Source: Candidatus Saccharimonadales bacterium (GTDB lineage Bacteria; Patescibacteriota; Saccharimonadia; Saccharimonadales; UBA4665). Taken from it: a stretch of DNA of 37,697 nucleotides. Shown here one piece after another: positions 4,645 through 37,697 of the stretch. Both the position numbers and the translations under genes were made by a program. The DNA is taken from positions 1 through 37,697 of the forward strand of contig JBASZU010000087.1 in NCBI GenBank assembly GCA_049661165.1, read 5' to 3'. Every line of letters starts with the position of its first letter. The stretch's first letter is position 1. The notes below the pieces were generated by a model. It was given only the letters and a program-made list of their open reading frames with translations, was not told the origin of the DNA and searched no databases.

Positions 4645-5756
4645 AAAAGGTAGTAACAATAAATCTAAATGGGCGAGCGTATCAGGTCGAAGAGGCTGGC
4701 TATGAAGCACTGCAGGATTACCTCAGCAAGGCTGAAAAAACGCTGGTGAAAAACCAGGACAAAACAGAGATATTGGCCGATATAGAGCAGGCCATAGCAG
4801 ATAAGTGCACTGGCGAACTCAAAACCGGCAAGAATGTCATTGCCACAGAAACAGTTCGAGCAGTCCTAGAGAAGATAGGGCCTGTCCAAGAGGGTTCTAC
4901 AGATGAAGATGAACCGGGTGAGTCGGGGGCGGGTGTTGAATCGGCGCGCAAACTGTACCGACTGCCGAAAGAAGGTCAGCTAGCTGGTGTATGTGCGGGT
5001 CTGGCGGCGTATTTTGGCACCGATACGACCATCATGCGGGTGATATTTGTCGTACTATTGTTTATTTCACAGGGTTTCATGATACTCATTTATTTGGCAC
5101 TGGCGGTTGCGATGCCAGAGGCTAAAAAGCCGGAGCAAGTTGCAGAAGCTTACGGCAAACCAGGCACCGCCAAGGAAATCGTTGGCCGGGTCAAAGATAT
5201 TGCTACCGATAAAGACAATGTCGCCAAAATTGGCACGGTTATTACAGTGGTAGGACGGGCGATTGCCCAAATTCTCAAATTTGCTGCAGCGGTCATTTTT
5301 GGTGCATTTACTCTCGCATGGGTGTGGGTGCTTGGCGCAATCGGGCTCGAGGGCCTGCAGTTTAAGGATGAACTCGCTTCTCTGAACGGCTTCAAGCAAA
5401 TGGTGTTCGTAACAGCAGTTTATATAGTGGTGGCCGTACCATTTTTCTTGCTCGTGCGGGCGCTAGACAGGGCAACCCGTGAGGGCGCAAAAGATGAGCT
5501 GAAGAATACGGCCGCATTTGACGGAACTATGATAGCGCTCATAGTCACCGCGACCGTTGTTCTGAGTGCATTTTTTAGTGTATATGCCACAAGTGTTAAC
5601 GACTATGTTACTACCCACGGCGGCTATCTAGATTTCGGTCGGCATCACCTGTGCGTAGATGAGGCAAAGTGCGGGTCGGGCATAGAGTATCTCCGTGCAC
5701 ATCCGCAATATTGGGACGAAAACCCTCAGATTGACCGCAGGCTATTGCAAAACTAG
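4641..5756 (+). CDS. PspC-domain membrane protein
   Basis: 371 aa. ATGA overlap with padR, and AGGAGG (4629-4634) 6 nt upstream of the ATG. LYRLPKEGQLAGVCAGLAAYFGTDTTIMRVIFVVLLF is the PspC domain, followed by several TM helices. Confidence 0.85.
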   Translation: MKKVVTINLNGRAYQVEEAGYEALQDYLSKAEKTLVKNQDKTEILADIEQAIADKCTGELKTGKNVIATETVRAVLEKIGPVQEGSTDEDEPGESGAGVESARKLYRLPKEGQLAGVCAGLAAYFGTDTTIMRVIFVVLLFISQGFMILIYLALAVAMPEAKKPEQVAEAYGKPGTAKEIVGRVKDIATDKDNVAKIGTVITVVGRAIAQILKFAAAVIFGAFTLAWVWVLGAIGLEGLQFKDELASLNGFKQMVFVTAVYIVVAVPFFLLVRALDRATREGAKDELKNTAAFDGTMIALIVTATVVLSAFFSVYATSVNDYVTTHGGYLDFGRHHLCVDEAKCGSGIEYLRAHPQYWDENPQIDRRLLQN

Positions 5757-5782: not shown

Positions 5783-6370
5783 ATGATGGAGAATAGTTCG
5801 AGAATCGTAAGATTAATAATCTTTTTGCTGGTGTGTATTGGGCTCATCTGGCTCATTGTCCTGCTATTTAGTCGTGTATTTTCAAGTGGCAATCAAACCA
5901 CCCCTGTTGCAACCACCCAGATGAGCAGCTATGGACGTATTGGCACGAGCGCGCAGCTCTTCATTGATGGGCCAGTTGTGGTTAATCAAGAGCACCGAGC
6001 ACTCCGAATAACCGTAGAGGCCACTCAGAGCAAGATAGAATTGCTAACTGGGTACGATGGTCAAGTTATCAGGCAAGAGGTTTTTCCGGGCACCCTAGAG
6101 GGTTACAAAACATTTCTGAGCTCATTAGAGACACTTGGCTTCAACAAAGGCAATAAAACAACGCAAAAGGATGAGCGTGGCCAGTGCCCCTTGCAAAATA
6201 GATTTGTATATACGTTAACGGACGCGGGTAGCGATGTCTTTCGGTACTGGTCAACACCGTGTGGCACGGGCAACTTTGGAGGCAGGCAGTCATCGGTGCG
6301 CGTACTATTCCAAAGACAAATCCCCCTGAAGATATACAATGAATTTTCTCGTGGCCTACAGGCCAGCTAA
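5783..6370 (+). CDS. N-terminally anchored hypothetical protein
   Basis: 195 aa. One N-terminal TM/signal-anchor (IVRLIIFLLVCIGLIWLIVLLF), then a soluble domain with two Cys. No recognised family. Confidence 0.6.
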   Translation: MMENSSRIVRLIIFLLVCIGLIWLIVLLFSRVFSSGNQTTPVATTQMSSYGRIGTSAQLFIDGPVVVNQEHRALRITVEATQSKIELLTGYDGQVIRQEVFPGTLEGYKTFLSSLETLGFNKGNKTTQKDERGQCPLQNRFVYTLTDAGSDVFRYWSTPCGTGNFGGRQSSVRVLFQRQIPLKIYNEFSRGLQAS

Positions 6371-6399
6371 TACCTGGTACCTGCTACAATACAGAAGCC

Positions 6400-6981
6400 A
6401 TGGGAGAGATAAACGCAATTATATTTGATCTATACGGTGTATTGGGGCAGAACGGCTGGCAGGGCTTTAAAGAAAAACATTTTGGTCAGCGACCCCAGGC
6501 CTGGGAGCGGCTGCGGCGGCTCGGGCAGCAGGCGGATGCCGGTGCGGCGAGCCAGGAGACGTTTGTAGCGGCACTTGTAGGTGCAACTGGGGAGACCGAG
6601 GCAACCATTCGCCGCCAGTTTGAACAGACACGACCAAATCTCCAACTACTAGATTTTATAGCGCAGGAACTAAAGCCTGCCTACAAGATTGGTCTATTAA
6701 GTAACACAAGCCACGATGTATTCCAAAGCATATTTTCTGCTGAGCAGTATGCGTTATTCGATGCCGCCATAGGCTCATTTGCCGTGGGCCTGACAAAGCC
6801 TGACCCCGCAATGTTTGCGCTGATGTGCCGTGAGCTAGCCGTGGAGCCAGAGGCTTGCGTGATGGTTGATGACAAATCTACGCACCTGCTAGCTGCTGAA
6901 ACTATGGGCATGCGAGGTATCTTGTACCAAACGGCCGAACAGACCATACGAGACCTACGGGGTATGTTAGCGGATGATTAA
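6400..6981 (+). CDS. HAD-superfamily hydrolase (subfamily IA-like)
   Basis: 193 aa. Motif I is IIFDLYGVL, motif II LLSNTS, motif III K(PDP), motif IV VDD. An extended -10 TGcTACAAT (6382-6390) lies 9 nt before the ATG. Confidence 0.8.
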   Translation: MGEINAIIFDLYGVLGQNGWQGFKEKHFGQRPQAWERLRRLGQQADAGAASQETFVAALVGATGETEATIRRQFEQTRPNLQLLDFIAQELKPAYKIGLLSNTSHDVFQSIFSAEQYALFDAAIGSFAVGLTKPDPAMFALMCRELAVEPEACVMVDDKSTHLLAAETMGMRGILYQTAEQTIRDLRGMLADD

Positions 6982-7558
6982 GGCTATTATTTTTGATTGT
7001 TTTGGCGTGGTGCTTACAGACGCGCTACAGGCAATACGGAGCGATCTAGCCCTGAGAAATCCTCAAGGTGCTCGGGAAGTAAGTGATATTATTGCGGCGA
7101 ATAACCGTGGTCTTATGGAGCCAAGCGAATCACGAGAACAGATAGCGGCAATCATGGGTATCACTACAGATGAATTTCGTTCGCGCGTCGCCGCCGGAGA
7201 AGTGCGGGACGAAGCTCTGCTGAACTATGTTTTAGACCTGCGCCAGAGCTTCAAGACAGCTATGTTAAGTAATATCGCTGGTGAGAGTCTGCAGAGACGG
7301 TTCCCGGGGAATGAACTAGCCGTGTATTTTGATGAAGTAATTGCCTCGGCTGAGATTGGGTTTGCTAAACCCGACCATCAGGCATACGAAATCGCCGCCG
7401 AGCGACTCGGCGTTATGCCTGCGGAGTGTGTGTTTACGGACGACAGAGAAGGGTTTTGCGTGGCCGCAGGGGACGTCGGCATGCACCCAATTTTGTATAA
7501 AAATTTTGCACAGTTCTCTACTGAACTGCGCGAACTATTGAAAAAATTACAGGGGTAA
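6974..7558 (+). CDS. HAD-superfamily hydrolase (tandem paralog)
   Basis: 194 aa. IIFDCFGVV, MLSNI, KPD and TDD motifs. It overlaps the previous HAD gene by 8 nt. Confidence 0.8.
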   Translation: MIKAIIFDCFGVVLTDALQAIRSDLALRNPQGAREVSDIIAANNRGLMEPSESREQIAAIMGITTDEFRSRVAAGEVRDEALLNYVLDLRQSFKTAMLSNIAGESLQRRFPGNELAVYFDEVIASAEIGFAKPDHQAYEIAAERLGVMPAECVFTDDREGFCVAAGDVGMHPILYKNFAQFSTELRELLKKLQG

Positions 7559-7674
7559 TTGTAAGAATTCTTACAGTAAATGTTGATTGAATATAACCAG
7601 TTACTGCTGTATAACTAATAGGGTAAAGCAGTAGCGTTTATGCTGAACGCTGAAATTTGGCGAGGGAGTCGGAT

Positions 7675-10600
7675 ATGCACATGTTCTATACGAACAAAAC
7701 AAAAACCATCCGCACAAATACCAAATACAAACCTCTAACAATTATCAAAACAGGCATAATCGCAGTCACCCTACTTTGTACGGGTCTACTTGTGTCAAAT
7801 AATCAGCCGCCGGCGTATGCGGCCGAGTTGTGTTACAAAGACGCTCAGGGAGCCAATGACGAACCTAATCAGAAAGATTTGACCAGAGCTTGCTACGAAA
7901 AGACCGGTCTACCAGATTATATTACGGTTAAATGGCAGTGGGATGAGCTTGCAACGTCGGGCAATAACAGCATGGACGGATGTGCGCTCTTTGACACAGA
8001 CGGCGATGGTCTCGTTAACTATGCAGCTTGCGTAACCACGAAAAATGAGGGTACAAATAAAGACGAACACGCAGTGTTCGACGCCCTCACGATGTATTCG
8101 TGCGGTGATAATACGGTAGACAGATGTTCCCAGCCTCTACAGGTCATCCCGAATGGATTGAATACCTGTACTGTTACCCAGCAGTCGAGTGATCCTTTCC
8201 CTATCGGAAGTGAAAACCCGATAGACACGGTCGCAAGCTGCACTATATACCTCAGCACTATTGGTTCCGGCGCGGCTCAGCTTATCGACGCCTGCTCCTA
8301 CCCATCACAACAGCCAAATTCTGACCCTTCAGACTGTGTTCTTATAGACAAAGGACTGGCCAAGCTCTCCGTCGTAAAATCTTTGGTACCTGCTACCGAC
8401 TCTGGTACGTTCAACCTTCAGGTAAATGGCACAACAAAAGCTACCGGAGGTAATCTTACGGACACCGGTACGATAGTGGTTGATGCTGGCGCAAACTTGG
8501 TTGGTGAAACAGCAGCATCTGGCGCGCTGAGTGACTACACGACGGCAATTGAATGCCGTGATCTACACGGCACGGGTGCGGTCGTAGGGAGCAGCACAGG
8601 TGGTACGCTGCTAAATGTAACGGTTGCTGAAAACGCTGACATTCTCTGCACCATAACAAATACGCGCAAAGCCGGACAAATAACGGTTGTCAAAGAAGTG
8701 ACCAATGACAATGGAGGCACGAAAAAAGTTGCAGATTTCCCACTATTTATTAACGGCACCTCCACTACAAGTGGTGTCGCCAAGACACTTTCACCTGGGA
8801 CATATACTGTTTCAGAAACAAACCAGGCAGGTTATCACCAGAAATCGCTGACATGTGTTGATAGTTCAACTGGTCAGGCCGTAGCTCATCCGGTAGAACT
8901 GGGGGATGACCAGAACGTGACATGTACCATTGTGAACGACGACAGGCCAGCTACGTTGACCGTCGTTAAAACATTTGCCAATCAGTACGGCGGCACAACG
9001 AACCCGGCTGACTTCAGCTTTACAATAAACAGCGGCGCACAGACAGCTTTTGAGGCAGACGGTAGTAACCAGCTATCGGTCAATGCAGATACATACAATG
9101 TTGCCGAGACTCCAAAAGGCGGCTTCGCGGCGCCAAGTTACAGTGGGTGTAGCGGTATTGTCCTCTCTGTTGGCGGTAGTGCTACCTGTACTATAACCAA
9201 CAGCGACCTCCCGGCAACTCTTATTGTTAAAAAAATTGTCATCAATGACGATGGCGGTACGGCCACAGCCGATGATTTTTCGTTCCAGGTAAACGATGCG
9301 AGTGCTGTGAAGTTCGAAAAAGACGGCCAAAATGATCTCTTGCTGGCTTCCGGCACATATGGAGTTGTCGAAGCAGACGCTCCGGGATATGCAACTACCT
9401 ACAATAACTGCCAAGAACTAGTAATCGCCAATGGTCAAACACAGACGTGTACCATTACAAACAACGATATCGCACCGACACTGACGCTCGTGAAAGCTGT
9501 AACAAACGATGATGGCGGTACGGCTACTGCTACCAACTGGACGCTAACAGCTCAGTCTACTGATGCCACGCTTCCTGTGCCTAGCGGCAAGACAGGCGAG
9601 GCTGCAGTTACCAATGTAGTGGTCAAGGCCGGCGTGGCTTACGCACTTTCTGAGGCGGATGGGCCGACCGGTTATGCGAGCGAGGGGTGGCAATGTACTG
9701 CTGGAATCATGAAAGACGGCGCCGTAACACTTGCGCTCGCTCAGAATGCTACCTGTACTATTACCAACAACGATATCGCACCGAAACTGACGGTGCGCAA
9801 AGTCACGGAGCCAGCTAGTTCAACGCAGGCATTTTCGTTTGTTGTTACGAACCTCGTAGGTGATACTCCATTTGCGCTCGATACAAACGCCGATACCGTT
9901 ACGCCGAACGAACGCACGTTTACGGCTCTGAGGGCAGGGACAACAACTATTTCTGAGCAAAGTACAGAGGGCTGGGTGCTTGCAGCCGCCAGCTGTGATA
10001 CTGCCAGGGCAGAACTGAACGGCAGCACCTTACAGCTTGAACTTAGTCCTGGCCAAGACGTGACGTGTACATTTACAAACAGCCAACTTGGTAGTGTGGA
10101 GGTAACGAAATTCCGCGATACGAACGAAAATGGCATACTCGATGATACGGAAGAGTTGCTGCCAGACTGGGAGATGAACCTCTCAGAGTCCTGTGAAGGT
10201 GCAGAGTGCGAAGCTTTCACATCGAAAGTCACCAACCAAGATGGTGTGGCCATATTTGAAGGTGTCAGTAGCGGCTCCTATGTATTGAGCGAGACACTCC
10301 AGGATGGTTGGCTGCAAACAGGAATGTACTGTGGTGAACCGGGCGAAACCCCGATAAATACCAATAACCTATCGCTTCGCCTTGGCGCTGGCGCTACACA
10401 ACGCTGCTACGTGGGTAATACCCAGCCGCTTCGTTTGCTGCTTGCCAAAACCAATAACGCATCCTCGGTAAAACAGGTGGGCGACACCGTACTGTACACA
10501 CTGGTTGTGACAAACCCTGAAGACAGCGGCTACGCGAGCGATGCCACGGTGACCGATACTCCTCCTGAGGGCTTCAAATATGTTCTGGGTAGTTGGACAG

Positions 10601-12000
10601 CAGCGTCAAATATACGCGGCGACTTGAAAACAGGAGGGGTTACGACAGAGCCAACATATGCTAGCCCTGGTGACTGGAACCTTGGGGATATGTTGCCGGG
10701 TGAAATCGTGACACTAACGTATTTGACTAAAATAATCGCCGCGAGCGATGGAATATATCCCGACAGCGCCTTTGCATCGGCAGGGTCTGTCCTGGGTGCG
10801 TCTACGGTGTTTTCTAACTTGTCGCTAACGCCAGACAACCCATTTGTCGGGACGCAGGTGACGGTAGATTCACCGCTAGTACCTGGTCCGGTGCAGCGAG
10901 CAGGGGTTGTGTTGGGTGCATCGACCACGTTGCAAAATACAGGAGAGAAGATTATCTCGAGTCTGCTGTTTGCGCTTGGTATCATTGCCGTATCGGTGAT
11001 TGTCTTTGCACGAAAAAAGAAAAGAACTTTAGCATACAACGGAATTCGTACGAGCGCTTTACTACTAGTGTTTGGTCTGGTGCTGTTTGCGGGTGGTACC
11101 GCGCAGGCTGCAACCTACTGGACGACAAATATATCGACACCTGAGGCTCAGACGACCACAGGAGTGTTCGGCATAGATTTTCAAGTGTTGAGTACGACTC
11201 CCAGCGACACGTTTACGGTGCAGCTTTACCAGAATGGCATTGTCATAGCGACCCAAAATATCGCAACAGACAATGGTGACTCGGGTTCATTCCCTATCTC
11301 GCTTACCAGCGACGGCACATACAACTATTTCACCAAAACGCAACACGGCAGCGATGTATCAGATGTGAAAACATCGCCAACACTTACCGTTCAGTTTGAT
11401 AGAACGGCTCCGGCTGCCCCAACTCAGGTGACTAAGACCACAACGACCGGTGGTTACGTCCTGAACTTCCTCGTCCCCGGCGGTACGGAATCGTCCCAGG
11501 TGCAAGTGTTTGCTTCGAGCTCCACAACATTTATTGCTGATGCAAGCACACTTGTGCGCACTATGGCAGCAACGCCAGGCGTGGTTCAGTCAACTGCACT
11601 TGGAGTGAGTGACGGCCAGCCGCGGTATTTTGCGGTACGGACTGTTGACGCTTTCGGCAATACTTCTGCGCTGGTCACAGAGTCGCCTCAAGTCCAGGCA
11701 GCAGCGACTACTACTACGACAGGAGCTGTGCAGGGGGCGTCTACCGCACTCTCGGCCTCGGCAGCGCAGGGTGCCGTAAATGGGGCGAACACGACTTTAG
11801 ATGCAGATAAGACACTACAAACTCAGAATACAACCTCAGCTAGTAACGGCGAGGTTCTTGGGCTAGAGACAGAATCGAAAACAACGCCAGCGGCCAAGCA
11901 GAACGCAACGAATGGCAGAGGTCTCATATGGGTTGTAGCACTCGGTGTTCCCGCAATTATCGCTGCGGTACTACTGTTGACCCGCAAAAAGACATCCTAG
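7675..12000 (+). CDS. Giant cell-surface protein with tandem beta-sandwich repeats, DUF11-like region and Ig/FN3-like C-terminal module
   Basis: 1,441 aa from ATG 7675, with GAGGGAG 7 nt upstream; the track start 7657 is TTG. There is an N-terminal signal peptide (...PPAYA-AE). The module ...TCTITN-D-(A)PTLTVVK..NDDGGT...DFSF... recurs repeatedly, followed by VGDTVLYTLVVTN (DUF11-like). It has an internal and a C-terminal TM plus basic tail. Confidence 0.85.
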   Translation: MHMFYTNKTKTIRTNTKYKPLTIIKTGIIAVTLLCTGLLVSNNQPPAYAAELCYKDAQGANDEPNQKDLTRACYEKTGLPDYITVKWQWDELATSGNNSMDGCALFDTDGDGLVNYAACVTTKNEGTNKDEHAVFDALTMYSCGDNTVDRCSQPLQVIPNGLNTCTVTQQSSDPFPIGSENPIDTVASCTIYLSTIGSGAAQLIDACSYPSQQPNSDPSDCVLIDKGLAKLSVVKSLVPATDSGTFNLQVNGTTKATGGNLTDTGTIVVDAGANLVGETAASGALSDYTTAIECRDLHGTGAVVGSSTGGTLLNVTVAENADILCTITNTRKAGQITVVKEVTNDNGGTKKVADFPLFINGTSTTSGVAKTLSPGTYTVSETNQAGYHQKSLTCVDSSTGQAVAHPVELGDDQNVTCTIVNDDRPATLTVVKTFANQYGGTTNPADFSFTINSGAQTAFEADGSNQLSVNADTYNVAETPKGGFAAPSYSGCSGIVLSVGGSATCTITNSDLPATLIVKKIVINDDGGTATADDFSFQVNDASAVKFEKDGQNDLLLASGTYGVVEADAPGYATTYNNCQELVIANGQTQTCTITNNDIAPTLTLVKAVTNDDGGTATATNWTLTAQSTDATLPVPSGKTGEAAVTNVVVKAGVAYALSEADGPTGYASEGWQCTAGIMKDGAVTLALAQNATCTITNNDIAPKLTVRKVTEPASSTQAFSFVVTNLVGDTPFALDTNADTVTPNERTFTALRAGTTTISEQSTEGWVLAAASCDTARAELNGSTLQLELSPGQDVTCTFTNSQLGSVEVTKFRDTNENGILDDTEELLPDWEMNLSESCEGAECEAFTSKVTNQDGVAIFEGVSSGSYVLSETLQDGWLQTGMYCGEPGETPINTNNLSLRLGAGATQRCYVGNTQPLRLLLAKTNNASSVKQVGDTVLYTLVVTNPEDSGYASDATVTDTPPEGFKYVLGSWTAASNIRGDLKTGGVTTEPTYASPGDWNLGDMLPGEIVTLTYLTKIIAASDGIYPDSAFASAGSVLGASTVFSNLSLTPDNPFVGTQVTVDSPLVPGPVQRAGVVLGASTTLQNTGEKIISSLLFALGIIAVSVIVFARKKKRTLAYNGIRTSALLLVFGLVLFAGGTAQAATYWTTNISTPEAQTTTGVFGIDFQVLSTTPSDTFTVQLYQNGIVIATQNIATDNGDSGSFPISLTSDGTYNYFTKTQHGSDVSDVKTSPTLTVQFDRTAPAAPTQVTKTTTTGGYVLNFLVPGGTESSQVQVFASSSTTFIADASTLVRTMAATPGVVQSTALGVSDGQPRYFAVRTVDAFGNTSALVTESPQVQAAATTTTTGAVQGASTALSASAAQGAVNGANTTLDADKTLQTQNTTSASNGEVLGLETESKTTPAAKQNATNGRGLIWVVALGVPAIIAAVLLLTRKKTS
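8671..10080 (+). repeat. Five tandem ~88-100-aa domain repeats inside the surface protein gene
   Basis: Module boundaries are marked by CTITN/CTIVN/CTFTN followed by xTLTVVK-type strands. Modules 4 and 5 share a 19-nt exact DNA repeat, aacaacgatatcgcaccga, at 9460-9478 and 9766-9784. Confidence 0.8.
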
Positions 12001-12002
12001 CA

Positions 12003-12260
12003 CTACTGAACCCGGAAAATTAACCGTTTTTCGGTGCTGGCGGCTTTCTGCAAAGCCCGCGAGTTCAGACGTAATGTACCTATAAGGGCGGCGCTGCGTC
12101 CGCTTACGGCGATATTTCTTTGTGAAACGGTTACCGTAACCTCATGGTCATAGTGTCGCCGGACGTATTCTTTTATAGCCTGCGCTTCGGGGGGAATATC
12201 AAAATCCTTGTTGCTGAGTATATCTGCAAGACCGTCCATAGAGCTATAAGTATCTGGCAT
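12003..12260 (-). CDS. Small DUF721/DciA-like protein (tentative)
   Basis: 85 aa. The C-terminal half VTVTVSQRNIAVSGRSAALIGTLRLNSRALQKA...LIFRV resembles DUF721-family proteins. It is convergent with the surface protein gene, with stops 2 nt apart. Confidence 0.5.
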   Translation of the reverse strand: MPDTYSSMDGLADILSNKDFDIPPEAQAIKEYVRRHYDHEVTVTVSQRNIAVSGRSAALIGTLRLNSRALQKAASTEKRLIFRVQ

Positions 12261-12307
12261 TAATGATTAAGTATCAAGTACGGCAAGGTTGCCTGCAATA
12301 TTCTAAT

Positions 12308-12475
12308 CCCTGAATCACGAAACTCTATCCCTGTCATTCCGAGCGAAGTCGAGGAATCTTCTTGTTGTATCATGGAACAAACAGGCGAGAAGAAGGTCTT
12401 TCGACTTCGTCCGCTAGCCAGCGGACTTCGCTCAAGATGACGTCATCACGGTTTTGTTTGGTTTCGTGATTCAGG
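12308..12475 (+). mobile_element. MITE-like palindromic element, copy A
   Basis: 15-nt terminal inverted repeat: cctgaatcacgaaac (12309-12323) and gtttcgtgattcagg (12461-12475). It is flanked by the direct repeat TTCTAAT (12301-12307 and 12476-12482). Internal nested palindromes include gtcattccgagcgaagtc / gacttcgctcaagatgac and gtccgct-agcc-agcggac. No ORF. Confidence 0.7.
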
Positions 12476-12544
12476 TTCTAATAACTTTACCGTACGTCTG
12501 GGTTATTGGAATATCTTGAGGTTGGGGAGGTGTACAATGGGAGC

Positions 12545-13528
12545 ATGCCAGAGCTACCAGAGGTAGAAACCATACGCCGCGGGCTTACGACACTGCTTGT
12601 CGGAAAGAACGTATGTGGCGTCCATAATTACGGGAGTCTGAAAAGTTTTCCGAACGCACCAGCGGATGTTAAGCAGTTTCTGGTGGGGGCAACAGTCTCG
12701 CGAGTGTGGCGAAGGGCAAAGATGTTGTTCATCGAGCTTTCAAGTGGTTATACGCTAGCGTGCCATTTGAAAATGACAGGGCAGATTGTAGTGATACAAA
12801 AAAATCCTAAACTCGAAAAGCGAAACTCGAAACAAATTCAAAGTGCAGAAGCAAAAAATACTAAACATTTAGAATTTAGATATTCGAATTTAGGGCTTCT
12901 CGCTGGAAGCGGGCGGTGGGGAGCGGGGCATCCAAACGATAGTTTTGTGCGGGAACTGCCAGACAACACTACCAGAGAACACATTGACTTCACTGACGGT
13001 ACTCGCATGTATTTTAACGACCTTCGCAAATTTGGTTGGATGAAGTTATGCCCAGCGCTGGAAGTGCCAAACATGGATTTTATGAGAAAAGTTGGGCCAG
13101 AACCGCTAGAAAGTTCATTTACGGGTGAGGTTTTGTATGAGCGTTTGCAGCGGCGAAAAAATACGTCGATTAAAGCAGCTATTCTTGACCAGACCGTCTT
13201 GGCTGGGGTTGGGAATATTTACGCAGATGAGTCACTGTGGGCGGCGAAGATACACCCAAAAACACTCGTTAAAAACGTGTCGGCAGCAAGTATCAACCGT
13301 CTTGCATCTGAAATCAAAGCCGTTATGAATCTATCCATAGAAAAAGGCGGTAGTACCGACAAAAACTATGTGAATGCCGAAGGCAAAAAGGGGAGTTACC
13401 TGAGCTTTGCAAATGTCTTTCGCCGAGACGGCCAACCCTGCCCCCGCTGTGGCACAACCATCACCAAAATCCGCGTCGCCGCCCGCGGCACCCACATATG
13501 CGAAATGTGCCAGATAATTGACAAATAA
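12545..13528 (+). CDS. mutM: Formamidopyrimidine-DNA glycosylase (Fpg/MutM)
   Basis: It starts MPELPEVETIRRGL (the catalytic Pro2 requires ATG 12545, not the TTG at 12506). It has the H2TH region ...LDQTVLAGVGNIYADESLW... and the C-terminal zinc finger CPRCGTTITKIRVAARGTHICEMC. It contains an extra Lys/Glu-rich insertion. Confidence 0.9.
   Translation: MPELPEVETIRRGLTTLLVGKNVCGVHNYGSLKSFPNAPADVKQFLVGATVSRVWRRAKMLFIELSSGYTLACHLKMTGQIVVIQKNPKLEKRNSKQIQSAEAKNTKHLEFRYSNLGLLAGSGRWGAGHPNDSFVRELPDNTTREHIDFTDGTRMYFNDLRKFGWMKLCPALEVPNMDFMRKVGPEPLESSFTGEVLYERLQRRKNTSIKAAILDQTVLAGVGNIYADESLWAAKIHPKTLVKNVSAASINRLASEIKAVMNLSIEKGGSTDKNYVNAEGKKGSYLSFANVFRRDGQPCPRCGTTITKIRVAARGTHICEMCQIIDK
12803..12897 (+). 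repeat. In-frame palindromic repeat insertion within mutM
   Basis: cctaaactcgaa (12806-12817) pairs 11/12 with ttcgaatttagg (12884-12895). It shares aatcctaaac (12803-12812) and tttagaatttag (12868-12879), in the same order, with the rpsO-pnp intergenic region (27438-27447 and 27516-27527). Confidence 0.55.
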
Positions 13529-27067: not shown

Positions 27068-27143
27068 GGGTCGGCATCTGGTATACTCCCATGCAACGCC
27101 ATCAGTAGTCTCTAAGGAAGTTTTGAAAGGATTGTTTGTATAT

Positions 27144-30896: not shown

Positions 30897-33014
30897 ATGG
30901 ACAACAAAGGAAATAGAGGCAAGCGACCACAAAATGGCCAGAAAAATGGGCAACGAGGTGGAGGCAACGGGGGCGGAAATGGCTTCCGCGGTAAAAACGG
31001 CGGCGGAAATGCTACGCAGAACCAGTCTCAGCCGCAAAACGGTGAAAAACGACCGACGGTCAGCCGTGGTGCCGCTGTGCGGGCGCAAAAGCGGACGCAA
31101 ATGGATGCGCAGCGCGTGGCAAACCAGTGGATGCCAGCCCAGGTAGACGAAAACCGCCGCACGAACTTTATAGACGATTCGCCGCGCCTAAAAATCATCG
31201 GCCTTGGTGGTATGGACGGCGGCGGTAGCAAAAACATGATGCTTGTCGAGTATGTGAACGACGCCGTAGTGATAGATGCGGGAAACGATTTGAGTGTTGA
31301 CTTGCCGGGCATAAACTACGGCATAGCCGACACGGCATATATGGAAACAATCCGCCATAAACTACGTGCCTACATTATCACTCACGGACACCTCGATCAC
31401 ATTGGCGGTTTGCCACACATTGTACCGAAGTATCCGGCACCAGTGTATGGCAGTAAGTTCACCATTGGCCGGGTGCACGAAATTTTTGAGAATTTTGGTT
31501 TGCCTATGCCCGAAGGTTTCGAACTTAAAACAGTCGAAATGAACGAAGACACCCACGAACGCCTGAAGATTGGCGAATTTTTTGTAGAACTCGTGCGGGT
31601 GACGCACTCAATACCTGGTAGTACCATTGTGGTACTCGATACACCAGTGGGGCGCATCATAAACACAGGCGACTTCCGCTTTGACCCGAACCCGCTCGAC
31701 CACGAACGCACCGACATGGAGCGGCTCATAGAGCTTGGCAACGAAGGTGTGCTAGCACTGTTGAGTGAAAGTACAACAGTGGAGCGCTTGGGTCGAACGC
31801 CGTCAGAGAGTACTATCGAGCAGAGCTTTAAAGATATTATGCAGCAAGCACCCGGTCGTATCTTTGTGGGTGTATTTAGTACAAATATGAACCGCATACA
31901 GATGATTGTGAATGCGGCCGTACACCATGGCCGCAAAGTCGCAATAGATGGTCGCAGCATGGTGAGTACGCTTGAAATGGCGGTGCGCCACGGCTTCATG
32001 AAGATTCCAAAGGGCACATTCATACCGATTGCACAGGTGGGGACTATGACAGATGGCCAGGTTGTGGTGATCTGTACCGGGAGTCAGGGTGAGCCATCAT
32101 CTGCGCTGCAGCGTATGGCGAATGGTGAACACCGGCACATAAAACTAAAAGAGCAAGATACCGTCATTCTATCTAGTACACCAATCCCGGAAAGCGGTAA
32201 CGATGCGCTCATTGGCCAGATGGTCGATGACCTTACCAAAAACCATGTACATGTCTTCGAACACCGTAATCACGAGCTAGACAAGGTTGGACCACTCCAC
32301 GTTTCTGGCCATGCCAGCCAGGATGAATACGCCGAGATGATCCAAATGACCAAACCGAAGTTTTTCATCCCAATCTACGGGGCTTACCGGGTAAAACAGC
32401 GACACATTGACCTCGCCATAGAGCAGGGTATACCGCGCGCAAACTGCCTAAACGCCCTGAACGGTGAAGTTATAGCCCTTACTCCCGAAAAAATGGAAGT
32501 TATTGGTGAAGTGCCAAGCGGCACTATACTCGTTGACCAAACAGGCGCCATTGTCAGTAACGTGGTAGTCAAAGACCGAGTGCTTCTGGCCGAAGAAGGC
32601 CTGGTAGCCGTTGTTCTGACCGTCGATAAGAAGTCGGGCAACTTGCTTACGAGCCCCGATATCATTAGCCGCGGCTTCATATATATGCGTGAACAAGAAG
32701 ATATGATGAATGGTCTGCGTACCGAGGTTCGCCGCGCTGTCCAGCAGCGCTACAAGCGCATCGACATAGACCGGTTTAAGGCCGAACTGAAAGATCACAT
32801 TACGCACTATTTGTTTGAACAAACTGGTCGCAGCCCAATAGTTATACCGGTACTTAACATTGTAGGTGGTAAAAACGAAAAACAGGGTCCGCAGGGCAAA
32901 ACAGACAAACCTGCAGAACCACAGAAAACACCAGAGGAAATTGCCGCCGAGCAGCAAGCGCGCTTCCAGGCCATGCGCGAACGTCTCCTCAACCAAGACC
33001 CCCGTGTTGACTAA
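30897..33014 (+). CDS. rnj: Ribonuclease J with Gly/Asn/Arg-rich N-terminal extension
   Basis: 705 aa. Metallo-beta-lactamase motif ITHGHLDHIGG, a beta-CASP region, and HVSGHASQDE. The first ~75 residues are low complexity (GNRGKRPQNGQKNGQRGGGNGGGNGFRGKNGGGN...). Confidence 0.9.
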   Translation: MDNKGNRGKRPQNGQKNGQRGGGNGGGNGFRGKNGGGNATQNQSQPQNGEKRPTVSRGAAVRAQKRTQMDAQRVANQWMPAQVDENRRTNFIDDSPRLKIIGLGGMDGGGSKNMMLVEYVNDAVVIDAGNDLSVDLPGINYGIADTAYMETIRHKLRAYIITHGHLDHIGGLPHIVPKYPAPVYGSKFTIGRVHEIFENFGLPMPEGFELKTVEMNEDTHERLKIGEFFVELVRVTHSIPGSTIVVLDTPVGRIINTGDFRFDPNPLDHERTDMERLIELGNEGVLALLSESTTVERLGRTPSESTIEQSFKDIMQQAPGRIFVGVFSTNMNRIQMIVNAAVHHGRKVAIDGRSMVSTLEMAVRHGFMKIPKGTFIPIAQVGTMTDGQVVVICTGSQGEPSSALQRMANGEHRHIKLKEQDTVILSSTPIPESGNDALIGQMVDDLTKNHVHVFEHRNHELDKVGPLHVSGHASQDEYAEMIQMTKPKFFIPIYGAYRVKQRHIDLAIEQGIPRANCLNALNGEVIALTPEKMEVIGEVPSGTILVDQTGAIVSNVVVKDRVLLAEEGLVAVVLTVDKKSGNLLTSPDIISRGFIYMREQEDMMNGLRTEVRRAVQQRYKRIDIDRFKAELKDHITHYLFEQTGRSPIVIPVLNIVGGKNEKQGPQGKTDKPAEPQKTPEEIAAEQQARFQAMRERLLNQDPRVD
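32940..33013 (+). repeat. Direct repeat copy 1 (authentic rnj 3' end)
   Basis: 74 nt, 71/74 identical to 35058-35131. It encodes IAAEQQARFQAMRERLLNQDPRVD followed by TAA. Confidence 0.9.
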
Positions 33015-33035
33015 TGCACAGTTTCTTGCTATAAT
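33007..33035 (+). promoter_or_regulatory. Promoter of the 665-aa gene
   Basis: TTGACT (33007-33012, the last codons of rnj and part of the repeat), 17-nt spacer, then TGcTATAAT (33027-33035). ATG 33059 follows a short leader with no SD. Confidence 0.5.
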
Positions 33036-33058
33036 AATAGCTACACAGTAAAACGAAA

Positions 33059-35056
33059 ATGTTCAATATATATCCCATTCCTCCTACATCACAAGAAGAC
33101 GAATGCGTACCGGCAGAGGAAGCGTCAATCCCGACCTCTGCCGCTTGGCTAGGCGAGCTTGCCATATTTGACGGAATTGCAGCCACGCTTAAAGAATGGA
33201 CATCGAAAGCCTCTCAATCCCAGCGCACTCCAGGAAACCCCTACGTTGTGGGATTCGTCAGGGACGGAGAAGGACTTATGAAGCCAATTTACGGACCTAA
33301 AACATTTACGACGGAGAGAGGTTTCGTAGAGGGCCAATTTATATTTGGAGCAGATCCGAGCCGAGAGGTATTTCTCCAGGAGCCAAAGAGTTTGAAGGTA
33401 GATGGTCAGAGACTAACAAAAGGGAAGTATTGGGATGTCCTACCAGAAGACCTGAAAAAAATATTTCTAGGAGGTAACATCCTGATTACAAGTGGCGAAG
33501 ATCTGTATCCTATCTCTTCGGAACGAGACGGTCTAGGAGTAAATATTATGCCAACGATGGAAGAAATTGACGAGGCGATCGTCCAACAACAGGGAACCAA
33601 AACAGTTATTCTGTACACAGGGGCATATAGGATGGGGCGAAAAAAAGGTGGTGCCGAAGGAAGAACAGGTGTACTTGTCCGTATAGTTGACGGCAATATC
33701 AAGCCGCTAACTGTTGAGGCGGACGGGGAACAATATGCTATTGAGCTGAAAGGGTGCGGTACTAGTGGGGGTGGTTTTGGCGCTTCACATTCTCGGACGG
33801 GTAGAGAGATTGTGACCGGTGGTTGTGAAGCCGTGCAAGCTGTGGATGAACTAATACAGCTTGATAGAAATAATACTCCTGGCGGCACAAAAGCTGTGGC
33901 CGCAATCACTTTCTATAACCCAGAAACAAAGATATTTGGCCAAAAAAGTCTGCAACCATACCACCAAGGATATGTTGTACGGCTGATACCCTCTACGCTT
34001 AGGGCGTCATATAGTGGTATAGATGCTTATCCGCCGCAGCTATATAGCAAAGAATACGCAAATGCAGTCTTGGCAATGTTCACGGCAGGCCTTGTAAATG
34101 GCATAAGGGCTGAGGTGCCAAGCATTTTGGATCGTTCAGCACATTCTGAAAATATAGTGTTGTGGGGTAATGGACAGTTTGAAACGACCGATTTCTCTGA
34201 CCAAGTGCCGTTCAATGACCCAAATTATCCTTACCAAGCCGAAAGTGGTGGCTTTATGACTGTGAAGAATATGCTTACACACTATGTAAATATGATGGAG
34301 GAAACCCCGGGATTCGTCGTTGCGGGTGGATATAAAGCCTTTGTTGCACATCTCAATCAAGGTCTAGAGATGATAGGAGTGGGACGCCTACAATACGATG
34401 CAGAAATTACTCGTTCGGTGATTGTAAACCATATTTGGCAAAATGGTCTTGCCAAGAGAGTTTTTGAGACTCGAAGTGCTCATGGTTACTACCCGGAAGG
34501 TGTCGAGAAGGCAGCGGCTGTAGCTTTTGAAGAATTGTGCAAAAAAGTGGATGCTGACGATGAAGCAAGTTTTTGCGCGGCGGTTGATGCCTACACGCGC
34601 AGTATTGCCGAATTTATGGATAAGCTATACCCAGTTGAAGGACCACACAAACAAGTTAATCACCTAAGGAATGACAGCTACGATGCTGCCGTGTTTCATA
34701 TCTCATTGCCCACACTTCATATAGCCGTCCAGAAATATGGGGAAATATTTAATAATGATATCAATGCAGGGTTGAGTATATATGAAGCGCTTCATGCCAT
34801 CATAGAGCCAGTCAGAAGGTATCTGGAAGACGAACTCGATATTGGGAAAACTGCTTTGGAATGGGGCAAAGACGAAAAGATTGCCGAGCACGTAATGGAA
34901 GTTGAACAAAAAATTGCAAAGTTTAACGCTATGCTAGAATCTCCGGCAGAGTTTTGGCGGTTCATGACTGAAAAAAGGGAGCTTAGGGATATGCTTGCCT
35001 CAAAAGCGTATAGTAACCAAGGGGTTGTCACGCCTCCTACTCTGGTTACTGTCTAA
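33059..35056 (+). CDS. Large orphan protein with SelO/YdiU-like (protein-kinase-fold) core motifs
   Basis: 665 aa. The central region reads AIELKGCGTSGGGFGASHSRTGREIV..CEAVQAVDEL...TKAVAAITF...VVRLIPSTLRASY...SAHSENIVLWGNGQFETTDFSDQVPF. This mirrors the SelO order hxLKGxGxTP.SR.GDGR...E...A...TTRAL...RVAPSxLRFG...AHGVMNTDN...LDYGPFGF. The N- and C-terminal thirds are unassigned. Confidence 0.7.
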   Translation: MFNIYPIPPTSQEDECVPAEEASIPTSAAWLGELAIFDGIAATLKEWTSKASQSQRTPGNPYVVGFVRDGEGLMKPIYGPKTFTTERGFVEGQFIFGADPSREVFLQEPKSLKVDGQRLTKGKYWDVLPEDLKKIFLGGNILITSGEDLYPISSERDGLGVNIMPTMEEIDEAIVQQQGTKTVILYTGAYRMGRKKGGAEGRTGVLVRIVDGNIKPLTVEADGEQYAIELKGCGTSGGGFGASHSRTGREIVTGGCEAVQAVDELIQLDRNNTPGGTKAVAAITFYNPETKIFGQKSLQPYHQGYVVRLIPSTLRASYSGIDAYPPQLYSKEYANAVLAMFTAGLVNGIRAEVPSILDRSAHSENIVLWGNGQFETTDFSDQVPFNDPNYPYQAESGGFMTVKNMLTHYVNMMEETPGFVVAGGYKAFVAHLNQGLEMIGVGRLQYDAEITRSVIVNHIWQNGLAKRVFETRSAHGYYPEGVEKAAAVAFEELCKKVDADDEASFCAAVDAYTRSIAEFMDKLYPVEGPHKQVNHLRNDSYDAAVFHISLPTLHIAVQKYGEIFNNDINAGLSIYEALHAIIEPVRRYLEDELDIGKTALEWGKDEKIAEHVMEVEQKIAKFNAMLESPAEFWRFMTEKRELRDMLASKAYSNQGVVTPPTLVTV

Positions 35057-35057
35057 G

Positions 35058-35131
35058 ATTGCCGCCGAGCAGCAAGCGCGCTTCCAGGCCATGATCGAAC
35101 GTCTCCTCAACCAAGACCCCCGCGTTGACTA
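35058..35131 (+). repeat. Direct repeat copy 2 (orphan rnj 3'-end fragment)
   Basis: It would encode IAAEQQARFQAMIERLLNQDPRVD followed by TAG. No ORF precedes it in frame, because the upstream gene ends at TAA 35054-35056 in another frame. Confidence 0.9.
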
Positions 35132-35172: not shown

Positions 35173-35178
35173 GTGTTT

Positions 35179-35478
35179 ATGGCAAATAAAATGACTCCCG
35201 GTTCTAATATGCCGTTAGTCGAGGACTTTTGGGCTCCTGCCGATGATCGAATGATATGGCCACGTACACGAGAGGATATTGAGTTTGGCGATACAGCGGC
35301 TTTCGTAGAAGAACTTTATGCGGATCCGAATATTGTTGGTCGTGCTCGTCATGAACCTTCGCGACCCGTTGAAGATATCTCAAGCTTTCCTAAAGCCTAT
35401 ACGCCCGTATCTGTGACTCCGAGTGCCCTTGCAAAAGTTTCACGGTTGATTGGTGTACGACCTCCAACTGAAGAATAA
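35179..35478 (+). CDS. Small acidic hypothetical protein
   Basis: 99 aa from ATG 35179. No TM segment and no recognised motif. Confidence 0.5.
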   Translation: MANKMTPGSNMPLVEDFWAPADDRMIWPRTREDIEFGDTAAFVEELYADPNIVGRARHEPSRPVEDISSFPKAYTPVSVTPSALAKVSRLIGVRPPTEE

Positions 35479-35505: not shown

Positions 35506-35534
35506 TTGACACAAGTTGTATTTCTTGCTATAAT
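35506..35534 (+). promoter_or_regulatory. Promoter for the gene at 35542
   Basis: TTGACA (35506-35511), 17-nt spacer, then TGcTATAAT (35526-35534). ATG 35542 is 7 nt downstream. Confidence 0.6.
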
Positions 35535-35541
35535 ATAATTT

Positions 35542-35829
35542 ATGACCGAAACACCAAAAGGTTCACAAATTCCAAGCATAAAAGGTGACCCAGAACGATA
35601 TCCAGGCGCACATACTGGAGCTCATGGTGACCCAGTGAAGCTGATTGATGTTGCAGAAAAAGTCGTTAGAGTGATTGAGGCAAATGTACCAAAGGCGGTA
35701 GATACTGTAGAGATGACAACCGAACGAGCGAGGAGAATCATACTTGCATTTCAGGACGGTAAAAATGTTGACACCGGTGTACTTGATGACGCGAGAAGAT
35801 ATATGCATAGACAGGTCTCAGACGAGTAG
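35542..35829 (+). CDS. Small hypothetical protein
   Basis: 95 aa, predicted soluble, with no recognised motif. Confidence 0.5.
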   Translation: MTETPKGSQIPSIKGDPERYPGAHTGAHGDPVKLIDVAEKVVRVIEANVPKAVDTVEMTTERARRIILAFQDGKNVDTGVLDDARRYMHRQVSDE

Positions 35830-35865: not shown

Positions 35866-37697
35866 ATGGCGAAAAAGAAAAAGCAAGCAAAAAAGAAGGC
35901 AGCAGCTCCGGTTGAGCGAGAACCATCGCCCGTTGTAGGCTATGTGCTAGCGGTAGTTTTTATACTGGCGGCAATTTTTATATTTCTAGGTGGATTTCAC
36001 GCTGGTGGTACGCTGCCAAAAGGACTTTTTGGAGCCATGAGCTGGCTGTTTGGTTGGGGGGCATGGCTGGTGCCGATAAGCCTGCTCTACTGGGGCTACT
36101 ACAAATTTACAAACGATGACCACCGGGTACCACGCGGCCGCGTTTTTAGTATGTATATGTTTTTGGTACTTATGTCCGCCTGGTTCTTTACAGCGTTTGC
36201 GAGCGTTAAAGATGAGCCGGGTCTAGCTACGCAAACAGTGGGCGGTAACGGCGGTGAAGTGGGTGGTGCTGTGGGCGATGCTGTTCTTTCTGCTCTCGAC
36301 AAGGTTCCGGCGAGCCTGCTATTTTTTGCGTTTGGTCTGCTTACATTCTTTTTTGCTTTTGGCATATCGCCCAAAGTACTACTAAACCTAGGTAAGCTAT
36401 TCCATCGTGGTGAAAACGATGAGCCCGAAGGAGAACTGGCCGCACTGAAGGCCAAAGCGGCGCAGAGTGGTTTTCAGTTGAACGAAGGCGTGCCAGTTGT
36501 GAAGCATAGCGAAGGTTCGCTGGCGAAAGAACAGGTTCACCATTCCAACTTCCGTAATACTGCACAAAAATTGAGTGCAAACGAAAGTCATGAAGCCCTC
36601 ACTACGGCGAGCGATCCCGACTGGAAGCTGCCGGGTGTTGACCTGCTCGACCAACGTCAAGACAAGGCCGATGCGGGGAATGTGGAGGGTAACGCCCGCA
36701 TAATCAAGGAGACGTTTGCTAACTTCGCCATAGACGTGGAGATGGAGGGCGCAAACATTGGTCCGCGCGTGACACAGTACACGCTGCGGCCACCCACTGG
36801 CGTCAAACTTACGAAAATTACCGCGCTCGAAAACAACCTTGCACTTGACCTCGCGGCCACAACTATCCGTATGGAAGCACCCATACCCGGCAAAAGGGCT
36901 GTGGGTATAGAAGTACCGAATGTAAAGGGCGCAACGGTGCGGCTGAGTTCTATTTTCCAATCCCGCGAGTGGGCGGAGTCGGAGGGTGCGCTCACGTTTG
37001 CTATAGGGAAAGACATAGTGGGCCACAGCGTGGTTGCCGACCTAGCGCGTATGCCACACCTTCTTGTAGCTGGTCAGACAGGCTCTGGTAAATCTGTCAT
37101 GATAAACGACATCTTGACCAGCCTGCTATACCGCAACAGCCCAAGCGACCTCAAGCTCATTCTGGTAGACCCAAAACAGGTTGAGCTAACGCCGTACAAT
37201 GACCTTCCGCACCTCCTGACGCCCGTTATACACGAGCCGGAAAAGTGCATATCGGCGCTCAAATGGGCGGTGGCAGAAATGGAGCGTCGCCTGCGCACTA
37301 TGGCGGAAGTGAGCAAGCGCAACATAGAGGAGTATAACCTCATTAAGCCAGAAGAAAAAATGCCCTACGTTGTCATCGTTATAGACGAGCTAAGCGACCT
37401 CATGATGATGGCGGCGCGTGATGTTGAGGCGCTTATTGTCCGCGTGGCGCAGAAAGCACGGGCGGCTGGCATCCACCTTATACTTGCAACGCAGCGTCCG
37501 AGTGTGAATGTTATAACTGGGCTCATCAAAGCGAACGTGCCCGCTCGCATAGCATTTACGACTGTCAGCCAGGTAGACAGCCGAACTATCATAGACCAAA
37601 TGGGAGCAGAGAAGCTGCTCGGCCGGGGTGATATGCTGTACCAGACATCTGAAATGCCCGCACCAAAACGTGTTCAGGCCGCTTTTGTGAGCGACGG
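35866..37697 (+). CDS. ftsK: DNA translocase FtsK (3' end outside the window)
   Basis: It is not in the supplied ORF track because no stop falls inside the window. The frame is open from ATG 35866. N-terminal TM helices are followed by a linker and the motor domain, with Walker A GQTGSGKS (GSGKS codons begin at 37081), VVIVIDELSDLMM and ILATQRPSVNVITG. TATAAT at 35850-35855. Confidence 0.9.
   Translation, partial: MAKKKKQAKKKAAAPVEREPSPVVGYVLAVVFILAAIFIFLGGFHAGGTLPKGLFGAMSWLFGWGAWLVPISLLYWGYYKFTNDDHRVPRGRVFSMYMFLVLMSAWFFTAFASVKDEPGLATQTVGGNGGEVGGAVGDAVLSALDKVPASLLFFAFGLLTFFFAFGISPKVLLNLGKLFHRGENDEPEGELAALKAKAAQSGFQLNEGVPVVKHSEGSLAKEQVHHSNFRNTAQKLSANESHEALTTASDPDWKLPGVDLLDQRQDKADAGNVEGNARIIKETFANFAIDVEMEGANIGPRVTQYTLRPPTGVKLTKITALENNLALDLAATTIRMEAPIPGKRAVGIEVPNVKGATVRLSSIFQSREWAESEGALTFAIGKDIVGHSVVADLARMPHLLVAGQTGSGKSVMINDILTSLLYRNSPSDLKLILVDPKQVELTPYNDLPHLLTPVIHEPEKCISALKWAVAEMERRLRTMAEVSKRNIEEYNLIKPEEKMPYVVIVIDELSDLMMMAARDVEALIVRVAQKARAAGIHLILATQRPSVNVITGLIKANVPARIAFTTVSQVDSRTIIDQMGAEKLLGRGDMLYQTSEMPAPKRVQAAFVSD

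Follow-up and report, generated by a model that had tools for sequence, protein, structure and literature searches.

A repeat-bracketed accessory gene at the rnj 3′ end of a Saccharimonadales genome encodes a member of a previously undescribed protein-kinase-like family with a predicted SelO-like N-lobe pocket

What kind of protein is encoded by the gene that separates RNase J from FtsK in a Candidatus Saccharimonadales bacterium, and how did this gene come to lie there? We address these questions for a window comprising a whole stretch of 37,697 nucleotides (nt) (contig JBASZU010000087.1, assembly GCA_049661165.1, positions 1 to 37,697), in which the open reading frame (ORF) under study, hereafter the target, occupies 33059..35056 on the + strand, runs from ATG to TAA and encodes 665 amino acids (aa). 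Four independent public contigs, three of which belong to NCBI assemblies, code for a protein identical to the target. A first-pass annotation, made from the sequence alone, had described the target as a horizontally inserted orphan with SelO/YdiU-like kinase-fold motifs. The ORF, the motif strings and the codon coordinates given there were all exact when checked against the sequence: LKGCGTSGGGFG covers residues 230–241 (Lys231, codon AAA at 33749–51), CEAVQAVDEL residues 256–265, VVRLIPSTLRASY residues 306–318, AHSEN residues 361–365 (His362, CAT at 34142–44; Asn365, AAT at 34151–53) and TTDFS residues 376–380 (Asp378, GAT at 34190–92).

The target belongs to a protein-kinase-like (PKL) family that has not been described before and whose traceable members all come from uncultured bacteria, most of them with reduced genomes. 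Its description as an orphan is refuted by 12 full-length homologs retrieved at E≤1e-22 in a word-indexed search (30–44% identity) and by a profile search of 1.84 billion representative proteins, in which the core domain occurred in at least 178 protein clusters, defined at 50% identity, at E≤1e-3 and in 129 at E≤1e-10. The part common to the family is a central domain (profile positions ~212–510) that is found both in stand-alone proteins of ~600–750 aa and inside giant proteins of 1.5–4.7 thousand aa, such as P0024 (2543 aa), P0050 (2897 aa), P0093 (4668 aa) and P0107 (3082 aa). About a dozen distant members have signal-peptide-like N-termini, four giant proteins among them, including at least three of those named here. 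Traceable sources are metagenome-assembled genomes (MAGs) of Patescibacteria, Shapirobacteria, Omnitrophota and Babeliaceae (Dependentiae), together with some MAGs labelled Gammaproteobacteria, one of which has a gene neighbourhood around the family member that resembles those of the Candidate Phyla Radiation (CPR).

No Pfam domain was detected in the target or in 28 other scanned members (the 12 homologs, 6 giant or long proteins and 10 proteins of a ~600-aa subgroup), and P0024 is devoid of one over its whole 2543 aa. Likewise, no NCBIfam model was matched by the scanned target and family proteins, and single-sequence searches with the target against Pfam, NCBIfam and PDB sequences returned no match or noise only. 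PADLOC-DB and PHROGs gave no match for the target or three homologs, and a viral structure search with the target recovered weak giant-virus Ser/Thr kinases only, without a phage link. In the literature, the KINtaro catalogue itself being outside the scope of our search, we found no earlier account of a kinase-like or pseudokinase family from Saccharibacteria or Patescibacteria, and neither lineage is mentioned in the Legionella pan-kinome survey or in the KINtaro papers. The comparisons below make use of a 13-sequence family alignment (A1) and a 55-sequence core alignment (A2), the members of the latter being 20–50% identical to the target.

The protein-kinase-like bilobal fold of the target, which the first-pass annotation had suspected, is established, because the AlphaFold model of the core matches protein kinases and the sequence profiles agree. 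In the full-length AlphaFold2 (AF2) model (pLDDT 75, pTM 0.75), a disordered N-terminus (residues 1–35) is followed by a beta-rich N-domain (~36–195), a kinase-like core (~196–420) and a helical C-terminal region (~421–652). Trimmed to residues 190–510 (33626..34588, + strand) and modelled with the A2 alignment, the core reached a pLDDT of 91.1 and a pTM of 0.88, and Foldseek returned 766 PDB matches at E≤1e-3 with TM-scores of 0.29–0.47. All 50 of the matches listed are protein kinases at a probability of 1.00, including AAK1, SYK, FGFR, GAK, Aurora A and PKA. With the full-length model, YdiU/SelO with NAD (9jyn) was the sole match at E≤1e-3 (E 3e-4, probability 0.99) and canonical kinases ranked after it; the full-length TM-scores are low because the query has several domains. 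Searches of the PDB with the A1 and A2 profiles recovered eukaryotic-type kinases only, always at the catalytic loop and DFG segment, plus coiled-coil noise from the C-terminal helices, and the E-values on PDB kinases were only ~1e-3 to 2e-2, over ~50 residues. The N- and C-terminal regions, which had been reported to match nothing, indeed gave no match to a known family; within the target's own family, however, each of them is conserved.

Conservation of the putative active site was counted over 153 aligned core domains, with totals that vary from column to column. In the N-lobe, Arg202 (33662..33664, + strand) lies in a GRTG turn that may be the equivalent of the Gly-loop; it is Arg in 132/133 cores and invariant in A2. 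The beta3 motif E229-L-K231-G-C-G-T-S-G-G-G-F-G (33743..33781, + strand) includes Lys231 (140/141), the equivalent of the VAIK Lys, and Glu229 (136/141), which replaces the Ala of VAIK that contacts adenine in canonical kinases. Glycines are kept at positions 232 (134/141), 234 (139/141) and 254 (137/141). Glu264 (33848..33850, + strand), the alphaC glutamate equivalent, is present in 141/141 domains and aligned to E130 of YdiU, and the segment R308-L-I-P311-S312-T-L-R315 at the end of beta5 and the hinge (33980..34003, + strand) retains Arg308 in 139/143, Pro311 in 138/143 and Arg315 in 144/144.

In the C-lobe, profile alignment to IIHRDLKVEN of GAK places the catalytic-loop equivalent at R359-S360-A-H362-S-E364-N365 (34133..34153, + strand), with His362 conserved in 103/130, Glu364 in 105/130 and Asn365 in 128/130 members. 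In this alignment (IL-D-R-S-s-H-s-E-N-ill...f-T-D-y-s versus II-H-R-D-L-K-V-E-N-LLL...C-D-F-G-S), HRD is replaced by DRS, Asn365 corresponds to the catalytic-loop Asn and Asp378 to the DFG Asp, and His362 takes the place of the gamma-phosphate-contacting Lys of Ser/Thr kinases (HRDLKxxN). The position of the HRD Asp is Ser360 in the target and S, N, A, C, T or G across the family, never a conserved acid. The predicted metal-binding Asp belongs to T377-D378-F-S-D381 (34187..34201, + strand), aligned to the DFG of GAK and PKA, in which Asp378 is conserved in 129/129, Thr377 in 117/129 and Asp381 in 103/121 sequences.

Nine residues (R202, K231, E264, R308, P311, R315, E364, N365 and D378) are invariant in A2, and K231, N365 and D378 are also invariant in the 13-sequence alignment. 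Conservation of these last three among homologs, on which the first-pass annotation had staked its reading, is borne out at 140/141, 128/130 and 129/129, and the motifs go beyond chance resemblance. As judged from the alignments, the residue pattern is what one expects of a functional site for nucleotide and metal binding that lacks the base used in canonical phosphotransfer. Moreover, Glu229 and the two hinge arginines, Arg308 and Arg315, would render the canonical hydrophobic adenine pocket polar, and such a pocket is therefore implausible.

These features invite comparison with SelO. In SelO, ATP is bound in a flipped orientation, with Lys113, Glu136, Arg176 and Arg183 holding its gamma-phosphate and Mg2+ bound by Asn253 and Asp262 (P. 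syringae numbering); the HRD Asp is absent, and a C-terminal redox Cys/Sec residue pairs, through a disulphide, with a Cys of the activation segment (PMC8097203). Using hhalign, the 153-sequence core profile and a SelO profile yielded one 86-column N-lobe alignment with a score of 35.6 and an HH probability of 36%, pairing K231 with K107, R246 with R116, G254 with G120, E264 with E130, R308 with R170, S312 with S174 and R315 with R177 (target and YdiU numbering, respectively). YdiU K107, E130, R170 and R177 are K113, E136, R176 and R183 of P. syringae SelO, and all four SelO gamma-phosphate ligands are aligned in register with the invariant identical residues K231, E264, R308 and R315. None of 400 column- or block-shuffled SelO profiles reached 35.6 (mean 15–17, standard deviation ~2.6, maximum 27), and the reversed SelO profile scored 20. 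When the core profile was compared with the single YdiU sequence, the best local match was the RxxPSxxR segment itself, and when the 13-sequence alignment was set against one YdiU sequence, hhalign located the correct segment, but at a non-significant E-value (0.15).

The target family and SelO/YdiU have in common the kinase fold, the loss of the HRD catalytic Asp, the retention of the alphaC Glu and of the metal-binding Asn and Asp, K-G-x-G directly after the beta3 Lys, a Gly 10 residues before the alphaC Glu, an RxxPSxxR motif with identical spacing, the two Arg of which bind the gamma-phosphate in SelO, and a helical extension C-terminal to the kinase core. They differ in the catalytic loop (S-x-H-x-E-N in the target family, H-G-V-M-N-T-D-N in SelO) and in the DFG equivalent (T-D-F/Y-S versus D-Y/F-G), and the residue two positions before the beta3 Lys is His in SelO and Ala in canonical kinases but an invariant Glu in the target family. 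Furthermore, the Gly-rich beta3-alphaC insert of the target is 10 residues longer, its beta-rich N-domain of ~160 aa is unrelated, and its gene is accessory and mobile, whereas SelO is a conserved core gene. The C-terminal Cys motif of bacterial SelO (...SCSS) is absent from the target, in which Cys occurs only at positions 16, 233, 256, 494 and 506 and the C-terminus reads ...GVVTPPTLVTV.

Taken together, the comparison with the SelO core drawn in the first-pass annotation stands for the N-lobe, which aligns in register above every shuffled control, and for the full-length fold, where YdiU is the top match, but not for AHSEN and TTDFS, which align better to the HRDLKxEN...DFG of canonical kinases. 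The alignments point to a family in which the N-lobe phosphate pocket is SelO-like and the C-lobe closer to canonical kinases.

The position of the gene is informative about its arrival. The RNase J gene (30897..33014, + strand; Pfam RNase_J_b_CASP, RNase_J_C and Lactamase_B), whose product clusters at 90% identity with QQS19077.1 of Candidatus Saccharibacteria, provides the integration site with its 3′ end. A repeat search showed that the last 74 nt of this gene (32940..33013, + strand; attL-like) recur with 71/74 identities at 35058..35131 (+ strand; attR-like), where the second copy starts 2 nt after the stop codon of the target and is out of frame with the target ORF. The spacing of the repeats delimits an inserted unit of 2118 bp (33014..35131, + strand) comprising a promoter-like site, the target ORF and the second repeat copy. 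The promoter-like site, a pattern match from a consensus scan, is a TG-extended sigma-70-like TTGACT-17-TATAAT (33007..33035, + strand; 11/12) located 24 nt upstream of the target ATG, with its -35 hexamer inside the end of the RNase J gene. The surrounding housekeeping block reads S20, DHH protein, TruB, S15, PNPase, 23S-IVP protein, UDG, RNase J, target, two small ORFs, FtsK, S6, S18, SSB and EF-P; the FtsK gene (35866..37697, + strand), which runs off the window end and shows 92% nucleotide identity to its counterpart in a close relative (L092), is the conserved downstream flank of the variable junction.

This repeat-bracketed unit is the structure expected from Campbell-type integration, that is, a single crossover, of a small circle with an attachment (att) site resembling the rnj 3′ end. 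As in att-flanked islands of this type, the repeats duplicate the 3′ end of the target gene of integration, which stays intact, and the same site carries variable cargo across genomes and is empty in close relatives. The unit differs from such islands in being tiny (2.1 kb, one gene) and in that genes for an integrase, an excisionase or any other mobility function are absent from it and from its flanks. Insertion into a tRNA or tmRNA gene was rejected, as Rfam and tRNA scans of the window found nothing, and so was an assembly artefact as the source of the repeat, since the arrangement recurs in three separate NCBI assemblies.

Horizontal insertion, as proposed in the first-pass annotation, is confirmed by the 74-nt flanking direct repeats and by empty sites in close relatives. 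Among 67 metagenomic loci with an RNase J at 68–90% identity, the gene is present in none of the ~45 that also include FtsK, and in these the RNase J-to-FtsK gap ranges from 94 bp to 4.1 kb. In the three closest relatives (L092–L094), whose RNase J falls in the same 90% cluster and whose gene order from TruB to FtsJ is otherwise identical, RNase J is followed by a 98-aa ORF and then FtsK, the unit being absent; both repeat copies of the window map to the single RNase J 3′ end of L092.

The same scar is found with other cargo. In CP064992.1 (L091), the RNase J 3′ end (7968–8075) has a second copy ~1.67 kb downstream (9640–9753), which brackets three unrelated small ORFs (203, 107 and 133 aa; no Pfam match), and in L061 the copy at 12673–12753, 818 bp downstream of that at 11935, brackets a 237-aa ORF with a SAM-methyltransferase-like LEVGAGDG motif. 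Two further alleles of the target occupy the same slot: the one encoding P0003 (42% identity) is followed, 9 nt after its stop codon, by a decayed second RNase J end, and at the one encoding P0002 (44% identity) a scar was not detectable. Because the same scar recurs in other genomes with different cargo, the rnj 3′ end is a recurrent integration site with exchangeable cargo.

Sequence divergence and composition set the target apart from its neighbours. Between the window and the P0002 locus, identity is 82% for RNase J, 75% for FtsK and 65% for UDG, compared with 44% for the kinase-like protein, and the GC content at third codon positions (GC3) is 0.40 for the target gene versus 0.55–0.59 for RNase J, PNPase, UDG and FtsK. 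When the three alleles in this slot are compared, identity amounts to 52–58% in the kinase lobes, 41–44% in the N-domain and 29–36% in the C-terminal helices. The target is an accessory, fast-diversifying gene, in which the N- and C-terminal domains evolve faster than the catalytic core. Because it is accessory and diversifies fast, its presumed specificity domains faster than its core, we infer that it serves in conflict, through host manipulation or as a toxin or defence enzyme, and not in housekeeping. A toxin, effector or defence function had already been raised in the first-pass annotation; PADLOC and PHROG searches gave no match for the target or the three homologs scanned, and this role stays an inference. 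A reading as one half of a two-gene toxin-antitoxin or defence system was rejected for want of a conserved partner gene.

How, then, might the enzyme work? We tentatively favour a SelO-like mechanism, namely transfer of a nucleoside monophosphate (NMP) from a flipped nucleotide. The nucleotide would be bound as in SelO/YdiU, with its gamma-phosphate held by K231, R308 and R315; N365, D378 and Mg2+ would act on the alpha-phosphate; NMP, rather than phosphate, would be transferred to a protein substrate (AMPylation or UMPylation); and the choice of this substrate would fall to the beta domain at the N-terminus and the helical region at the C-terminus, which evolve faster than the core. A further-reaching and doubtful extension is that the target is the founding example of a new, structurally distinct branch of kinase-fold nucleotidyl-transferases, found to date only in ultra-small bacteria with an episymbiotic or parasitic life (CPR, Omnitrophota, Dependentiae), that it serves them as a rapidly diversifying weapon or manipulator against their host cells, and that in Saccharibacteria it moves as an integrase-less one-gene cassette aimed at the rnj 3′ end.

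Several observations weigh against the explanation that we favour. The SelO profile, built from YdiU and P. syringae SelO from the PDB together with enterobacterial homologs, is shallow (Neff ~1.9), since diverse SelO sequences were sought but all those recovered were enterobacterial and ≥79% identical, and the HH probability to SelO is only 36%. A hidden Markov model (HMM) of SelO gave at most 3.5 bits on 158 family proteins, about the level of reversed-sequence controls, and PF02696 had no Pfam match at E≤10 for the target or any of 13 family members. Once the C-terminal helices are removed, canonical kinases outrank SelO, which is not among the best 50 of the 766 trimmed-core matches. The spacing from Asn to Asp is 13 residues, as in PKA, versus 9 in SelO, and the xxEN...TDF segment is canonical-kinase-like; Glu364, which corresponds to the acidic residue preceding Asn in SelO, is replaced by Asn in 18/130 members. 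The placement of R308 and R315 in the pocket derives from sequence alignment, not from model coordinates. As to mobility and biological role, no signal peptide was predicted in the window protein, no integrase or recombinase was found in the 2118-bp unit or among its neighbours (RNase J, the two small ORFs and FtsK), and no conserved operon partner emerged, the neighbourhoods of P0004, P0005, P0010 and P0012 having nothing in common. Outside Saccharibacteria, the gene stands alone in unrelated neighbourhoods.

The explanation that survives best beside it, doubtful as we consider it, is an active atypical phosphotransferase, acting on proteins or small molecules with ATP in the canonical orientation and with His362, Glu364 or Asp381 replacing the HRD Asp. 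Its appeal lies in the C-lobe: the 50 structural matches listed for the trimmed core are canonical kinases without exception, the catalytic loop and DFG segment align to GAK, StkP, PhK, AAK1 and PKA with the canonical 13-residue Asn-Asp spacing, and His362 occupies the position of the gamma-phosphate-contacting Lys of HRDLKxxN. The Lys, Glu, Asn and Asp of the kinase site are all kept, and the target family has the overall fold, the Lys-Glu pair and the xxEN-to-DFG-Asp spacing in common with eukaryotic-type protein kinases (PF00069/PF07714; GAK, AAK1, StkP, PKA). However, it departs from these kinases in lacking the HRD Asp, with no conserved acid at this position, a Pkinase HMM match and a recognisable GxGxxG, and in possessing large family-specific flanking domains. 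Matches to the APH, RIO, Kdo and HipA models of Pfam are equally absent, and the invariant beta5/hinge Arg pair together with the invariant Glu in place of the VAIK Ala is hard to fit with a hydrophobic adenine pocket.

Equally built on the loss of the catalytic Asp with retention of metal and phosphate ligands, but unlikely in our estimation, is a different chemistry, with an adenylylated intermediate or a group derived from the nucleotide, such as SidJ-like glutamylation or NiRAN-like NMP or RNA transfer, on a host or self target. Precedent is available, in that kinase-fold enzymes without canonical motifs are known to perform AMPylation, glutamylation and RNAylation (PMC6858067, PMC8863163). 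A second site could be provided by the large N- and C-terminal domains peculiar to the family, and by analogy with Legionella SidJ and nidovirus NiRAN, a kinase fold would have been repurposed for nucleotide-dependent non-phosphoryl transfer in host-associated organisms, the target family occurring in Dependentiae and CPR lineages. Yet no similarity to SidJ or NiRAN was detected by sequence or in Pfam, PDB profile or fold searches, and the present data do not separate such chemistry from the simple NMPylation that we favour.

That the target is a catalytically dead pseudokinase, used as a nucleotide-binding scaffold or switch, is distinctly improbable: the catalytic Asp is missing and the gene diverges fast, but nine residues of the active-site region, including both metal ligands and the Lys-Glu pair, are invariant over 55 sequences at 20–50% identity, a pattern typical of enzymes and not of decayed sites. 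Finally, a divergent genuine SelO/YdiU orthologue with a housekeeping role in redox or stress AMPylation/UMPylation is close to refuted, since, despite the N-lobe register and the YdiU full-length fold match, the target gives no PF02696 or SelO HMM match, lacks the C-terminal Cys motif, differs in its N- and C-terminal domains, and varies in presence among very close relatives as an insertion with foreign GC3. The target thus falls outside the SelO family, contrary to what the first-pass motif comparison might have suggested.

Saccharibacteria, like other members of the CPR, live attached to bacteria that serve as their hosts. To our knowledge, the means by which they manipulate or kill these hosts are largely unknown, and most of their accessory genes are unannotated. 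Here, a hypothetical gene becomes a testable enzyme with a defined fold and nine invariant candidate active-site residues, and the SelO-like mechanism makes a falsifiable prediction, namely AMP or UMP transfer from flipped ATP that depends on R308 and R315. If this prediction is true, the family would represent a second, independently diverged lineage of SelO-type AMPylases, and the flipped-nucleotide solution would be more widespread in the kinase superfamily than SelO alone suggests. Should the further-reaching extension also be true, the domain would be used both in stand-alone cytoplasmic proteins and in secreted giant proteins, and rnj would be an unrecognised cassette-exchange site, integron-like in logic, in genomes thought to be poor in mobile elements. 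With its precise repeats, empty sites and alternative cargos, the rnj 3′-end site offers a clean natural case of gene-cassette exchange in reduced genomes, and it could serve as a neutral integration site in the emerging genetics of Saccharibacteria.

A functional link between the target and RNase J was considered in view of the metallo-beta-lactamase-fold RNase Z, reported in 2025 as a SelO deAMPylase (PMC12663964), with which RNase J has its superfold in common. We set this link aside, as the adjacency occurs only at the integration site and not in other lineages, and is probably a coincidence of the att site.

Variation at the RNase J-FtsK junction extends beyond the repeat-bracketed cases. 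Seven loci (L033, L035, L039, L040, L051, L067 and L081) carry 1.8–4.1 kb of other hypothetical genes at this position with no detectable repeat scar. Some of these junction ORFs are common between loci (31% identity between L033 and L035, 52% between L040 and L081), and L067 has at this junction a pair of small paralogous ORFs that resemble membrane proteins.

Between the insertion and FtsK, the window contains two small ORFs, at 35173–35478 (101 aa) and 35542–35829 (95 aa), with GC3 values of 0.31 and 0.33, respectively. Neither has a Pfam or PHROG match, and the 95-aa ORF gave sub-threshold PADLOC matches only (E 0.017–0.056), which we treated as noise. A relative of the 95-aa protein was detected at the tblastn level in L023; in general, the small downstream ORFs are unrelated between loci. 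The 15-nt sequence TTTCTTGCTATAATA, which covers the -10 region, is identical at window positions 33022–33036 and 35521–35535, that is, before the target gene and before the 95-aa ORF. The promoter before the 95-aa ORF (TTGACA-17-TATAAT, 12/12) is 97% identical over 33 nt to that before the 98-aa ORF of L092 (L092 8112–8144), while the 95-aa and 98-aa proteins have no similarity to each other. The small ORF behind this conserved promoter thus seems to be swapped as well.

A second variable junction of the housekeeping block lies between TruB and S15, where the window has only a short gap (~27068–27140) and L092–L094 carry a MazE/PIN toxin-antitoxin pair and a 177-aa ORF (coordinates 566–1919). 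In the complete Saccharibacteria genome CP064992.1, PNPase (2763–4664), RNase J (6001–8078) and FtsK (10223–12498) are each called as two or three fragments through which the DNA aligns, likely reflecting either assembly frameshift errors or real pseudogenisation. In the upstream part of the window, a 1447-aa ORF extends over 7657..12000 on the + strand.

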